DNA of 64,000 nucleotides from Escherichia coli (GTDB lineage: Bacteria; Pseudomonadota; Gammaproteobacteria; Enterobacterales; Enterobacteriaceae): the NCBI RefSeq assembly GCF_017348835.2, contig NZ_CP071375.1. One strand, written 5' to 3'. How positions within the stretch are numbered: the stretch's first letter is position 1; each line of letters starts with the position of its first letter. Of this stretch, positions 19,017 to 61,615 are shown piece by piece. Both the position numbers and the translations under genes were made by a program. The notes beneath the pieces were generated by a model. The model saw only the letters and a program-made list of their open reading frames with translations. It was not told the DNA's origin and did no database searches.

Positions 19017-19143
19017 TATATTCAGGTCAAAACGGCTTCAGTCAAAAAAAATTTCGTGGCTGCAATCGTTTCATATATATTGACATTCTTAAAAAACCGG
19101 GGGAAACCTTCGGTTTTAATTAGCATCAAGCCAGAAAATTGAT

Positions 19144-19182
19144 ACGCTACCGCCCCTGGCTTAACAGCTACCAGTGCACTGC
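19144..19182 (-). promoter_or_regulatory. JUMPstart element with ops motif (RfaH-dependent antitermination site) upstream of the O-antigen operon
   Basis: Plus strand reads acgctaccgcccctggcttaacagctaccagtgcactg; the reverse complement contains GGCGGTAGCGT (ops) within the 39-bp JUMPstart consensus, in the galF-to-first-O-antigen-gene spacer. Confidence 0.75.
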
Positions 19183-24468: not shown

Positions 24469-24850
24469 TTGCCTGATGCGACGCTGGCGCGTCTTATCAG
24501 GCCTACAGGTCCCGAGCACAGAACCGTAGGACGGATAAGGCGTTCACGCCGCATCCGGCATTCAGTGCCTGATGCGACGCTGACGCGTCTTATCAGGCCT
24601 ACAGGTCCCGAGCACAGAACCGTAAGACGGATAAGGCATTCACGCCGCATCCGGCATTCAGTGCCTGATGCGACGCTGACGCGTCTTATCAGGCCTACAA
24701 GATCCAAGCACAGAACCGTAGGATGGATAAGGCGTTCACGCCGCATCCGGCATTCAGTGCCTGATGCGACGCTGGCGCGTCTTATCAGGCCTACAAGACC
24801 CGAGCACAGAACCGTAGGCCGGAATAAGGCGTTTTACGCTGCACCCGGCA
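24469..24850. repeat. REP/BIME array (about four tandem units of paired, inverted REP sequences)
   Basis: Repeated gcctgatgcgacgct(g/a)(g/a)cgcgtcttatcaggcctaca alternating with the inverted gtaggacggataaggcgttcacgccgcatccggca, with a period of roughly 100 bp, in the wzxC-wcaK spacer. Confidence 0.85.
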
Positions 24851-29177: not shown

Positions 29178-29265
29178 GTCGTTACCCTTTTTCAGGCAAT
29201 AGTTGGCCCTGACCGAAGCGGCCAATTTTGTTTTTGTCGTTATTTACACCGCGGTTTCGCATTCA

Positions 29266-43530: not shown

Positions 43531-43709
43531 TGTTTATTTATCACTTTGGCAGAGTTATTATCCTGTGCACTATTAATAGCAATGTCGCCATGCACATTTA
43601 CCTTGCAGTTAATTGAATAAAAATTTAACTGGCATCAGTCCTAAAAAAATTGATTTCATCCGCAGGCTATTGACAGAATAATTCAGACTGGTCTTTCAGG
43701 CATCCAGAC

Positions 43710-43748
43710 ACGCTACCGCCCCTGGCTTTTTAGCTACCAATACACTGA
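43710..43748 (-). promoter_or_regulatory. JUMPstart/ops element upstream of wza (colanic acid operon)
   Basis: Plus strand acgctaccgcccctggctttttagctaccaatacactg; the reverse complement carries GGCGGTAGCGT. It is a near-duplicate of the element at 19144-19182. Confidence 0.75.
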
Positions 43749-57738: not shown

Positions 57739-58496
57739 GGTAACCACAGCGCCAGTGCCAACGTTTTATCATCATCGGTACGCTCGTTTACCGCTGGGCT
57801 CGACAAAAACTGCTTTAACAATTCAGGTAATAAATCGAGTTGTTCCTGCGTTGCTGCCGCCAGTCCATTGAAAAAAGAGGTAAAGAAAGGCACATGGGGA
57901 GAATTATCCAGCATATTTAACGCCAGTCGCTGGATACCATCCGTAAATGCTGCAACTTTATGCACACGCTCAGTGCTGGTGAAAGTTTCCAGTCTGGAAA
58001 CGGCATCTTCATCGGTAATGAAGTGCGTCATATTGGCATATTCACCCACCATCGGCGTGAGCGGCAGTTCCAGACCACGACCAAAATCCACCACTACACC
58101 GCCGTCGCCAATTTGCATAATCAATGTGCCGTTAGCCGATGAAATCAATCCCAGAAACGTGCAGGCAAAATCGCGAACCGCTAATGCTTTGGCTTCCGCC
58201 TCGGCAAAAAGTCGCTGACGAATGGTCAGCACAATATCCGTGGCGAGGACATCATTAACCCCCAATTCACCGCCCTGTACTTTTTGCATCATAAACGCCA
58301 TCGCTTCATTGACGGCGAGCGTCGCGCCTTCTCCTCCCTGCGAAACGCTACCTGCGCCATCAGCAAGGAACATCACCAGTAATGGTTGCTGGTCGTTTAG
58401 CCAGGCAACCTGCATCTGGCAGGCATCCTGACAAGGTAAATCAGCGCTAATGTGCGACGTTCCAACAGCGGATGCATAAACCAGACGCCAGCTCAC
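57735..58496 (-). CDS. yegK: PP2C-family protein phosphatase YegK (PphC)
   Basis: 253-aa ORF in an operon with the kinase; overlaps yegL stop by 4 nt. Confidence 0.85.
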
Positions 58497-59152
58497 ACTG
58501 ACGTCCAGCCTTTTGGCGCTTCCAGCACAACTTCCGTTCCCGGCGTGGAGCGGGAAACCGAACGCAGCGAACTGGATAACCAGCTAAACAGTTCACGGAA
58601 TTGTAATCCCTGCAGTGGCAAAGGCTGACGAACGCTGATTTGTGCCAGCGTCTTCATATCCGCCCCCTGAACACCGATGGAAAAGAAGGCAAACTTCTTA
58701 TCTTCTTCCCCCTGAAACACTTTGTTGGCGGCAGCCTGCCACTCATCGGTTGGAGCGCCATCGGTGATCAGGAAAATCCACGGGCGATAATACGAAATAC
58801 CATTTGCGCGGTACTCACGTTTCCTCTCTTCAACCATATCCAGGGCTTTGGTAATGGCGGCCCCCATAGGCGTATCCCCCTGGGCAAACAGGATGGGCGG
58901 GAAAAAGTTAGCGGCGCTGGTAAAGGGTTGTTCCACATGCACCGGGCCGAACGTCACAATGCCGAGTTCCACTCTTTTTAAAGCCAGCGGATCAGCAAGC
59001 AGTTCATCACGAAAGGTAACCAATCCGGCGTTAAGTTCATTAATAGGTCTGCCGCTCATCGAGCCAGAAACATCCAGCAGCAGAATGCAGGGGCAACGTG
59101 GTTCCGGGTTACTGGCAAAATCGCTGGTGGCAAACGTGATTTGTTCGCTCAT
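58493..59152 (-). CDS. yegL: von Willebrand factor A (vWA) domain protein YegL
   Basis: 219-aa ORF with vWA MIDAS-like start ([12 protein letters not shown]); first gene of the yegL-yegK-yegI operon. Confidence 0.85.
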
Positions 59153-59333
59153 AAGAAATCCTTTCTTAGAGAATTATTGAGGTCCGGTATCATACCGACT
59201 GCAATAATGAAATAAGAGCAGGCAAAGCAACTTTCAGAATTCGGCCCGGCGGCGCAGAAAATTTTGCTATTCGCCTCGCAAGAACGGAGAGCCGTCGATT
59301 GACACTAAGGGCGGAGTGACATAATTTCAGGAG

Positions 59334-59480
59334 TGAGGGTTAGGGAGAGGTTTCCCCCTCCCCCTGGTGTTCTTAGTAAGCCTGGAAGCTAATCACTAAG
59401 AGTATCAGCAGTATGATGACGTGCTTCATCATAACCCTTTCCTTATTAAAAGCCCTCTTCTCCGGGAGAGGGTTTCCCGT
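59334..59480 (+). ncRNA. sib: Sib-type antisense sRNA (type I antitoxin), copy 1
   Basis: Sigma70-like promoter (TTGACA 59299-59304, 17-bp spacer, TAATTT 59322-59327); transcript fully antisense to the ibs ORF; GC hairpin gccctcttctccgggagaggg followed by a T-run at about 59453-59483. Ends are approximate. Confidence 0.6.
59374..59433 (-). CDS. ibs: Ibs-family type I toxin (19-aa hydrophobic peptide MMKHVIILLILLVISFQAY), copy 1
   Basis: Hand translation of the reverse complement of 59374-59433 gives a 19-codon ORF plus stop that matches the Ibs toxin family and lies inside the antisense Sib unit. Confidence 0.75.
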
Positions 59481-59668
59481 TTCAGCGTCCCGCTGAAATC
59501 GTCGGCTTACCTCCTTTCGCCCTGAATGCAGTCTATCGCTAACGCGTGAACAAAATAGTTCCCTCTGTGATTATTGCGTAACGACTCGCAAAGAATATTT
59601 GCTGGCAGGATCGCAGACTGCAAAGCCTGCAGATTGACAATCTTATCGTGAAGGCATACTTTCAGGAG

Positions 59669-59808
59669 TGAGGGTAGAGTGGGGTTTCCCCCGCCCTGGT
59701 AGTCTTAGTAAGCCGGGAAGCTTATGACTAAGAGCACCACGATGATGATCCACTTCATCATGACCCTTTCCTTATTTAAGGCCCCTTCCTCGGGAGGGGC
59801 TTTCCCGT
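59669..59808 (+). ncRNA. sib: Sib-type antisense sRNA, copy 2
   Basis: Promoter TTGACA 59634-59639, 17-bp spacer, TACTTT 59657-59662; terminator-like hairpin gccccttcctcgggaggggc followed by tttcccgttt near 59781-59810. Ends are approximate. Confidence 0.6.
59705..59761 (-). CDS. ibs: Ibs-family type I toxin (18 aa, MMKWIIIVVLLVISFPAY), copy 2
   Basis: Hand translation of the reverse complement; 18 codons plus stop; Ibs-like. Confidence 0.75.
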   Translation of the reverse strand: MMKWIIIVVLLVISFPAY

Positions 59809-59996
59809 TTCAGCGTCCCGCTGAAATCGTCGGCTTACCTCCTTTCGCCCTGAATTCAGTCTATCGCTAACGCGTGAACAAAATAGTTTCCTCTGTGATT
59901 ATTGCGTAACGTCTCGCAAAGAATATTTGCTGGCAGGATCGCAGACTGCAAAGCCTGCGGATTGACATTCTGAACGTGAAGGCATACTTTCAGGAG

Positions 59997-60135
59997 TGAG
60001 GGTAGAGCGGGGTTTCCCCCGCCCTGGTAGTCTTAGTATGCTGGGTAGCTAATCACTAAGAGCACCACGATGATGAGTATCTTCATCATGACCCTTTCCT
60101 TATTTATGGCCCCTTCCTCGGGAGGGGCTTTCCCG
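59997..60135 (+). ncRNA. sib: Sib-type antisense sRNA, copy 3
   Basis: Promoter TTGACA 59962-59967, 17-bp spacer, TACTTT 59985-59990; terminator-like hairpin ending near 60135. Ends are approximate. Confidence 0.6.
60033..60089 (-). CDS. ibs: Ibs-family type I toxin (18 aa, MMKILIIVVLLVISYPAY), copy 3
   Basis: Hand translation of the reverse complement; 18 codons plus stop; Ibs-like. Confidence 0.75.
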   Translation of the reverse strand: MMKILIIVVLLVISYPAY

Positions 60136-60367
60136 TTTCAGCGTCCCGCTGAAATCGTCGGCTTACCTCCTTTCGCCATGCAAGCAGTCTATCGCTAACG
60201 CGTAGATAAAATAGTTTCCTGTGTTATTACTGGATGCGTGCTCGCAAATGTGCCCGCCATTCAGACGATTCCCGATAGTGTTTCATAATTCCTCCATTTT
60301 TCTCCCTTATTGGCTGGCTACACTAGTATCATTCCGCGAAACGTTTCAGGAAGAGAAACTCTTAACG

Positions 60368-61615
60368 ATGAAAGGCAGTTATAAATCCCGTTGGGTAATC
60401 GTAATCGTGGTGGTTATCGCCGCCATCGCCGCATTCTGGTTCTGGCAAGGCCGCAATGACTCCCAGAGTGCAGCCCCAGGGGCGACGAAACAAGCGCAGC
60501 AATCGCCAGCGGGTGGTCGCCGTGGTATGCGTTCCGGCCCATTAGCCCCGGTTCAGGCGGCGACCGCCGTAGAACAGGCAGTTCCGCGTTACCTCACCGG
60601 GCTTGGCACTATTACCGCTGCTAATACTGTTACGGTGCGTAGCCGCGTGGACGGTCAACTGATGGCGTTACATTTCCAGGAAGGCCAGCAGGTCAAAGCA
60701 GGCGATTTACTGGCAGAAATTGACCCCAGCCAGTTCAAAGTTGCATTAGCACAAGCCCAGGGCCAACTGGCAAAAGATAAAGCCACGCTTGCCAACGCCC
60801 GCCGTGACCTGGCGCGTTATCAACAACTGGTAAAAACCAATCTCGTATCTCGTCAGGAACTGGATGCCCAACAGGCGCTGGTCAGTGAAACCGAAGGCAC
60901 CATTAAGGCTGATGAAGCAAGCGTCGCCAGCGCACAGCTGCAACTCGACTGGAGCCGCATCACCGCACCAGTCGATGGTCGCGTTGGTCTCAAGCAGGTT
61001 GATGTTGGTAACCAAATCTCCAGTGGTGATACCACCGGAATTGTGGTGATCACCCAGACGCATCCTATCGATTTGCTCTTTACCCTGCCGGAAAGCGATA
61101 TCGCTACCGTCGTGCAGGCGCAAAAAGCCGGGAAACCGCTTGTGGTAGAAGCCTGGGATCGCACCAACTCGAAGAAATTAAGTGAAGGCACGCTGTTAAG
61201 TCTCGATAACCAAATCGATGCCACTACCGGTACGATTAAAGTGAAAGCACGCTTTAATAATCAGGATGATGCGCTGTTTCCCAATCAGTTTGTTAACGCG
61301 CGCATGTTAGTCGACACCGAACAAAACGCCGTAGTGATCCCAACAGCCGCCCTGCAAATGGGCAATGAAGGCCATTTTGTCTGGGTGCTGAATAGCGAAA
61401 ACAAGGTCAGCAAACATCTGGTGACGCCAGGCATTCAGGACAGTCAGAAAGTGGTGATCCGTGCAGGTATTTCTGCGGGCGATCGCGTGGTGACAGACGG
61501 CATTGATCGCCTGACCGAAGGGGCGAAAGTGGAAGTGGTGGAAGCCCAGAGCGCCACCACTCCGGAAGAGAAAGCCACCAGCCGCGAATACGCGAAAAAA
61601 GGAGCACGCTCCTGA
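60368..61615 (+). CDS. mdtA: Multidrug efflux RND membrane fusion protein MdtA
   Basis: Protein [28 protein letters not shown]... (415 aa); the ORF track extends 49 codons upstream into the sib/ibs repeat. Confidence 0.9.

Follow-up and report, generated by a model that had tools for sequence, protein, structure and literature searches.

Published work on the ibs/sib type I toxin-antitoxin genes of Escherichia coli already covers the family and its mechanism, the tandem organisation of its members and the variation in their number from strain to strain. Overproduction of IbsC in K-12 is toxic and depolarises the membrane (PMC8309996). The antisense RNA Sib blocks translation of the toxin and depends on rnc (Wen and Fozo 2014, PMC4147584). 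Repression is cognate-only, proceeds through two domains, TRD1 and TRD2, and involves RNase III cleavage (Han 2010, PMC2943612). In SibC, TRD1 spans +46 to +68 in the P5 loop and targets the ibsC ORF, while TRD2 spans +99 to +115 in J1/7, targets the initiation region and requires the P1 stem and a P6-loop contact (Han 2010, PMC2943612). The number of genes differs between lineages: E. coli O157:H7 Sakai carries seven Ibs genes and K-12 five, with lineage-specific duplications (Fozo 2010, PMC2887945).

Here we analyse an ibs/sib array in the window, a stretch of 64,000 nucleotides of E. coli DNA. The array consists of three intact Ibs toxin/Sib antisense-RNA modules; it is real but ordinary. 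We are highly confident that it is a polymorphic ibs/sib array in its three-unit state, composed of a sibA/ibsA allele and two cassettes of the kind we call B-type, as in O157:H7.

The array between yegL and mdtA

A direct repeat occurs three times in the gap between yegL and mdtA, with start-to-start distances of 335 and 328 bp. A repeat search of the window returned three-copy direct-repeat families with a spacing of 328-335 bp that span 59320-60248, in agreement with the unit of about 330 bp that the first-pass annotation had described. The copies of one such family lie at 59454-59592, 59782-59920 (94%) and 60110-60248 (84%). Position and layout identify the locus: it lies between yegL and mdtA, the Sib RNAs are on the mdtA strand, and the arrangement is that of the K-12 record NC_000913. 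Locus, flanks and unit architecture are thus those of K-12 sibA/ibsA and sibB/ibsB, but the curated K-12 record holds two units, as the first-pass annotation had stated, whereas the window holds three.

58493-59152, minus strand: yegL, left flank of the array
59479-59633: conserved inter-unit spacer, which repeats at 59806-59961 and is truncated in its third occurrence (60134 to about 60248)
60368-61615, plus strand: mdtA, right flank of the array

Each unit starts with a TTGACA box (59299, 59634 and 59962). An Rfam scan of the whole window at gathering threshold gave three matches to SIB_RNA (RF00113, gathering score 56), the search that had been proposed for checking the array. All three are full-length (model positions 1-147), with scores of 137.6-143.3 bits and E-values of 1e-29 to 3e-28. 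Hence chance is excluded as an explanation.

59299-59327, plus strand: sibA-type promoter of unit 1 (-35 TTGACA at 59299-59304, 17-nt spacer, -10 TAATTT at 59322-59327)
59299-59447, plus strand: SIB_RNA match of unit 1, 143.3 bits, E-value 1e-29
59335-59478, plus strand: predicted SibA-allele RNA of unit 1, 144 nt, terminator hairpin at about 59450-59475
59634-59662, plus strand: promoter of unit 2 (-35 TTGACA at 59634-59639, 17-nt spacer, -10 TACTTT at 59657-59662)
59634-59776, plus strand: SIB_RNA match of unit 2, 137.6 bits
59670-59805, plus strand: predicted Sib RNA of unit 2, 136 nt, terminator hairpin at about 59778-59803
59962-59990, plus strand: promoter of unit 3 (-35 TTGACA at 59962-59967, 17-nt spacer, -10 TACTTT at 59985-59990)
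59962-60104, plus strand: SIB_RNA match of unit 3, 140.1 bits
59998-60133, plus strand: predicted Sib RNA of unit 3, 136 nt, terminator hairpin at about 60108-60129

The promoter pattern TTGACA-17-TAnTTT, read earlier from the letters, is present in all three units, but to call it near-consensus was generous: the -35 box is perfect and the -10 box matches the consensus at only three of six positions. A strict consensus scan called neither a sib promoter nor a sib terminator in any unit. It missed the promoters because of the -10 boxes, and the terminators because their U tracts are short (UUUCC). We transferred the +1 and the RNA ends of the Sibs from the curated K-12 annotation, where the +1 of both SibA and SibB is a G located 36 nt past the T of TTGACA. 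Over these 36 nt, from TTGACA to the +1, no base distinguishes unit 1 from K-12 sibA or unit 2 from K-12 sibB, which makes transcription of the Sib RNAs of units 1 and 2 likely. The promoter of unit 3 matches the other two in geometry and differs from that of unit 2 at three spacer bases.

The predicted Sibs fold stably compared with dinucleotide shuffles: -56.9 kcal/mol (z -4.6) for unit 1, -59.8 kcal/mol (z -4.8) for unit 2 and -58.1 kcal/mol (z -3.8) for unit 3. All three show the Sib layout in the MFE as well as the centroid fold, that is, a P1 closing stem, P5 and P6 hairpins and a terminator hairpin. A single-stranded CCUUAUU tract (J1/7, TRD2) and a GC-rich terminator hairpin appear in every fold, so that the GC hairpin at the end of the antisense RNA, claimed earlier, is borne out. 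The predicted folds agree with the Rfam consensus structure and with the published description (Han 2010, PMC2943612). In K-12, the affinity of ProQ for SibA and SibB is in the nanomolar range (PMC10168233), and ProQ probably binds the Sibs of the window likewise.

The minus strand carries one short hydrophobic ORF per unit.

59373-59432, minus strand: ibsA allele of unit 1, 19 aa, MMKHVIILLILLVISFQAY; ibsA in PGAP (WP_072149481.1)
59705-59761, minus strand: ibs of unit 2, 18 aa, MMKWIIIVVLLVISFPAY; Ibs family toxin in PGAP (WP_012767741.1)
60033-60089, minus strand: ibs of unit 3, 18 aa, MMKILIIVVLLVISYPAY; Ibs family toxin in PGAP (WP_012767742.1)

These are exactly the three peptides of the first-pass annotation, and the coordinates of the ORFs coincide with those of the PGAP CDSs. 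They share the Ibs form MMK-(hydrophobic core)-S[FY][PQ]AY with a length of 18-19 aa. The IbsA of the window is identical to K-12 IbsA at 18 of 19 residues, with the single exchange V9L, and the unit 2 and unit 3 peptides each match K-12 IbsB (MMKLLIIVVLLVISFPAY) at 16 of 18. Sequence identity and the PGAP names assign all three to the family as predicted Ibs toxins. Each ibs ORF is enclosed, together with its ribosome-binding site, by the predicted Sib on the opposite strand (three of three units). The antisense RNA is therefore fully overlapping, as had been proposed. Alignment of the units with each other and with K-12 sibA and sibB, another check proposed, revealed no degenerate copies.

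Over 1.6 kb the region matches E. coli PE164, a strain of pig origin, with 100% identity. Its PGAP annotation contains ibsA and two 'Ibs family toxin' genes and does not list the Sib RNAs. The toxin genes on identical sequence are already annotated in RefSeq, and little changes in this respect.

Predicted pairing between Sib RNAs and ibs messages

By homology to the K-12 paralogues, each unit would produce a constitutive Sib RNA of about 136-144 nt from its TTGACA-17-TA(A/C)TTT promoter, and the opposite strand, at a low level, an ibs mRNA that encodes a hydrophobic peptide of 18-19 aa. When overproduced, the peptide would depolarise the inner membrane. The Sib, whose complementarity extends over the entire ibs ORF and its ribosome-binding site, would begin to pair at TRD1 (P5 loop, in the ORF) and at TRD2 (single-stranded J1/7, in the translation-initiation region). 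Pairing would then spread, leading to a translation block and RNase III-dependent decay.

We mapped the positions of TRD1, TRD2 and the P6 loop in the window from the domains of K-12 SibC. Of the 136 Sib positions, 11 distinguish unit 2 from unit 3: five in TRD1, four in the P6 loop, one at position 110 and one in the P2 stem. The five TRD1 differences fall within 23 positions, and four of them are synonymous in ibs while one leads to F15Y. The P6-loop differences occupy positions 80-83 and lie opposite Ibs codons 4-5, which read W-I in one unit and I-L in the other. Over the 26 nt from Sib position 84 to 109, which cover the TRD2 core and the ibs translation-initiation region, the two units are identical. 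The longest exact run that unit 1 shares with unit 2 or unit 3 is at most 16 nt.

The same pattern is found in a wider set of sequences. We compared 12 distinct B-type Sibs drawn from seven strains; within the ibs ORF they vary in two patches only. The first (Sib positions 42, 45, 49, 54 and 57) corresponds to TRD1 and exists in two haplotypes; the second (positions 80-83) corresponds to the P6 loop and exists in four types. IbsB, WP_012767741, WP_012767742, WP_001386901 and WP_101685758 each combine one TRD1 haplotype with one P6-loop type. The TRD2 core does not vary among the 12 sequences.

Copy-specific pairing is a reasonable expectation for unit 1 versus units 2 and 3, judged from the sequences. 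Between units 2 and 3 it is plausible, because of the published data on K-12 Sibs (Han 2010, PMC2943612) and because of where the differences are placed. Any discrimination between copies would arise from changes in TRD1 and the P6 loop at the RNA level, not from amino-acid changes as such.

Alternatively, the Sibs of units 2 and 3 may each also silence the neighbouring ibs, so that the B-type units are mutually redundant. The exact run of 26 nt over the TRD2 equivalent speaks for such cross-repression, as does the constancy of the TRD2 core, and in K-12 a contiguous helix of 25 bp through TRD2 was enough to retarget SibC to ibsD (Han 2010, PMC2943612). However, TRD2 needs the additional P6-loop contact, and it is there that units 2 and 3 differ; TRD1 differs between them as well. 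Non-cognate Sibs in K-12 do not repress, with ibsA as the sole exception (Han 2010, PMC2943612). We consider mutual redundancy possible but doubtful. Cross-repression among B-type Sibs would bear on the question of why strains retain arrays of one to four cassettes.

A broader scenario would treat the units of about 328 bp as recombining cassettes that swap promoter, TRD1 and P6-loop modules, such that strains carry differing and partly cross-protecting specificities. This we regard as rather unlikely. If it were true, the target of selection would be the orthogonality of Sib and ibs instead of the peptides, with B-type neighbours providing mutual backup via TRD2. As a separate observation, divergence among the cassettes is concentrated in the RNA-recognition patches, next to an unchanging TRD2 core.

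Expression of the toxin genes

Promoters for the toxin genes are harder to recognise than those of the Sibs. On the minus strand, the strict scan found no ibs promoter. Under relaxed criteria units 1 and 2 showed only a weak TACGCA-17-TATTTT, and no counterpart turned up in unit 3. When the position of the ibsC 5' end (18 nt past the Sib 3' end; Han 2010, PMC2943612) is transferred to the window, it falls on a conserved TTCAGCG hairpin, with no promoter visible upstream. The minus strand of the inter-unit spacer presumably holds the putative ibs leader and promoter region. In unit 3 the repeat sequence ends about 140 nt upstream of the ATG, at the place where units 1 and 2 carry TACGCA-17-TATTTT. 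Since unit 3 does not have this upstream sequence, expression of its toxin may differ from that of the other two. Given that the relaxed scan yields no comparable promoter for it either, the ibs of unit 3 might be poorly transcribed or silent.

Hence one may ask whether at least one unit is decaying: the Sibs may be made while some of the ibs genes, especially that of unit 3 next to mdtA, are silent, and the array would be only partly a functional toxin-antitoxin system. Besides the missing recognisable sigma70 promoters in both scans and the shortened upstream region of unit 3, two facts from K-12 are in line with such decay. The curated record terms IbsB merely a 'putative toxic peptide', and deletion of sibA is tolerated (Han 2010, PMC2943612). 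The sequences themselves argue otherwise. In all three units of the window the ORF, the SD-like AAGGAAAGGG stretch and the ATGATG start are intact. Frameshifts or stops are found in none of 14 units from seven strains. Together with the restriction of ORF variation to two RNA-recognition patches, this points to purifying selection on B-type ibs genes. A relic is, in our judgement, quite unlikely.

Copy number, mosaic cassettes and known arrays

In line with the preferred reading, an ordinary polymorphic array, a third unit is nothing unusual across E. coli. The locus was matched in 5,419 of 5,426 complete E. coli genomes. We determined copy number in two systematic samples, evenly spaced down the match ranking (5,422 E. 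coli records).

40-row sample, window as query: about 18 with three units, 16 with two, 4 with four, 1 with one
60-row sample, four-unit array as query: 24 with three units, 25 with two, 7 with four, 1 with one

In these samples about 40-45% of the genomes carry three units, 40% carry two (the K-12 state), 10-12% four and 2% one. Four units are found in BL21-type strains and E. coli C, a single unit in a few strains. The three-unit state is about as common as the two-unit state of K-12 and is a common allele; the number found in K-12 is not the rule.

The first-pass annotation took the third copy as a sign of local amplification or diversification. A strain-specific recent tandem amplification should leave a near-identical neighbouring copy restricted to one lineage, and the array contains no such copy. 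That a K-12-like locus gained a third unit recently and then diversified within the lineage would fit the two units of K-12 and the fact that, within the window, units 2 and 3 form the most similar pair (92% over the unit), but it is largely refuted and highly improbable in view of the 11 Sib differences between these units, the unchanged presence of their peptides in distant lineages, the unit 3 Sib shared with BL21, the mismatch of both units with K-12 sibB, the chimeric nature of sibB itself and the frequency of three-unit arrays. The peptide of unit 2 (WP_012767741) also occurs in BL21-type strains, O157:H7, ST131 and strain 3347558, that of unit 3 (WP_012767742) in BL21-type strains, O157:H7 and strain 3347558.

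The ordinary array is better understood as a mosaic. At informative sites, unit 2 of the window has the promoter of BL21 unit 2 and K-12 sibB as far as about Sib +7, and from about +45 the body of BL21 unit 3. K-12 sibB combines the promoter and ORF of BL21 unit 2 (head) with the tail of BL21 unit 4. The spacer types are mosaic between strains as well. We also considered that K-12 derives from a four-unit array by loss of units 3 and 4; this explains the head/tail chimera of sibB but not the spacer types, and we rejected it.

Because the cassettes are mosaic, unequal recombination among them explains the copy number. The pattern fits unequal crossover and gene conversion among repeats of about 328 bp, with no direction implied, and is at odds with recent amplification from a K-12-like ancestor. 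Such recombination probably uses the inter-unit spacer as its substrate. The join between promoter and body in unit 2 is what would be expected as the product of an unequal crossover between units 2 and 3 of a BL21-type array. In such a process, the copy number (one to four in the sampled genomes) would change as units of about 328 bp undergo unequal homologous recombination or gene conversion, and the same recombination would shuffle promoter, TRD1 and P6-loop modules. Judged by their sequences, units 2 and 3 are old, diverged and widely shared cassettes, not recent duplicates of K-12 sibB; this corrects the earlier view of the third copy.

How does the array compare with the arrays that are already known? 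Unit 1 is close to K-12: it shares 98% identity with the sibA unit, and 142 of 144 positions of its Sib match SibA. The differences lie at Sib positions 74 and 138, and one of them produces V9L. The IbsB peptide of K-12 is missing from the window, while unit 2 has the K-12 sibB promoter.

The array of O157:H7 has three units in the same order, identical peptides in units 2 and 3 (WP_012767741 and WP_012767742) and the same combination of promoter and body in unit 2. The seven Ibs genes of Sakai, compared with five in K-12, fit this three-unit array. Over the intergenic region O157:H7 is 97% identical to the window (37 differences in 1,216 columns). In unit 2 the promoter region (59634-59669) shows no difference and the Sib a single one, at 59680. 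O157:H7 has the K-12 IbsA peptide, whereas the IbsA of the window has V9L; the other differences lie mostly in the tail of unit 1 and in the spacers.

In BL21-type strains, units 1, 3 and 4 correspond to units 1, 2 and 3 of the window, with identities of 95%, 98% and 100% over the unit, and the Sib sequence of BL21 unit 4 is identical to that of unit 3 of the window. Compared with the four units present in BL21-type strains and in E. coli C, the array of the window lacks the body of the IbsB cassette.

Outside the family, the nearest parallel is ldr/rdl (LDR), likewise a chromosomal type I toxin-antitoxin system with tandem copies in one intergenic region (PMC2887945, PMC4147584). Its toxin family is unrelated to Ibs and its repeats are longer; the two systems are alike by analogy only.

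Annotation of the module and plus-strand ORFs

In the records compared, PE164 (identical to the window over the 1.6-kb region with the array) and K-12, only the curated K-12 record NC_000913 lists sibA and sibB. PGAP, as the PE164 record shows, annotates the ibs coding sequences and leaves out the Sib ncRNAs. Most RefSeq genomes therefore carry no annotation for the antitoxin half of this module.

Sib itself also contains plus-strand ORFs:

59413-59496 (+), 27 aa, within unit 1 Sib
59724-59870 (+), 48 aa, within unit 2 Sib
60070-60198 (+), 42 aa, within unit 3 Sib

An ATGATG that mirrors the ibs start is the starting point of two of these ORFs and is spanned by the third. All three overrun the Sib 3' end and are without an SD, so the ATGATG...ATCATC palindrome most likely gives rise to them as mirror artefacts.

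Sequences after each Sib RNA and upstream of mdtA

Directly past each Sib terminator lies a hairpin, TTCAGCG-TCC-CGCTGAA, which is kept in all three units:

59481-59497, hairpin, unit 1
59809-59825, hairpin, unit 2
60137-60153, hairpin, unit 3

The minus strand carries a strong SD-like stretch, AAGGAGGT, at 59509-59516. It is repeated in every unit, and in none of the three does a minus-strand start codon follow it. Hairpin and SD-like stretch are probably part of a putative ibs 5' leader.

Closer to mdtA, a strict promoter scan of the region returned a single sigma70-like site, TTCAGA-18-CATAAT (60260-60289, +). It is followed by TTTTTCTCCCTTATTGGC (60287-60304), which we take to resemble a BaeR box. 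The stretch 60260-60304 (+) is probably the mdtA promoter together with a regulator site.

Other structured RNAs in the window

Rfam matches in the window include three tandem naRNA4 copies with 96-bp spacing (65-73 bits):

24529-24599 (+), naRNA4 (RF02564)
24625-24695 (+), naRNA4
24721-24791 (+), naRNA4
19143-19181 (-), JUMPstart (RF01707)
43709-43747 (-), JUMPstart
29182-29231 (-), algC RNA (RF02929)

The two JUMPstart elements and the single algC RNA fit the clusters of polysaccharide genes (O-antigen or colanic acid) that one would expect upstream in this part of the chromosome.

Cassette order in other strains

In one genome of the systematic 60-row sample, IS421 is inserted in the locus.

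Cassettes of the window recur in changed order in other strains; the comparison covered ST131, WP4-S17 and strain 3347558. ST131 lacks ibsA altogether; strain 3347558 has the order IbsA, WP_012767742 (the unit 3 peptide of the window), WP_012767741 (the unit 2 peptide) and WP_001386901.
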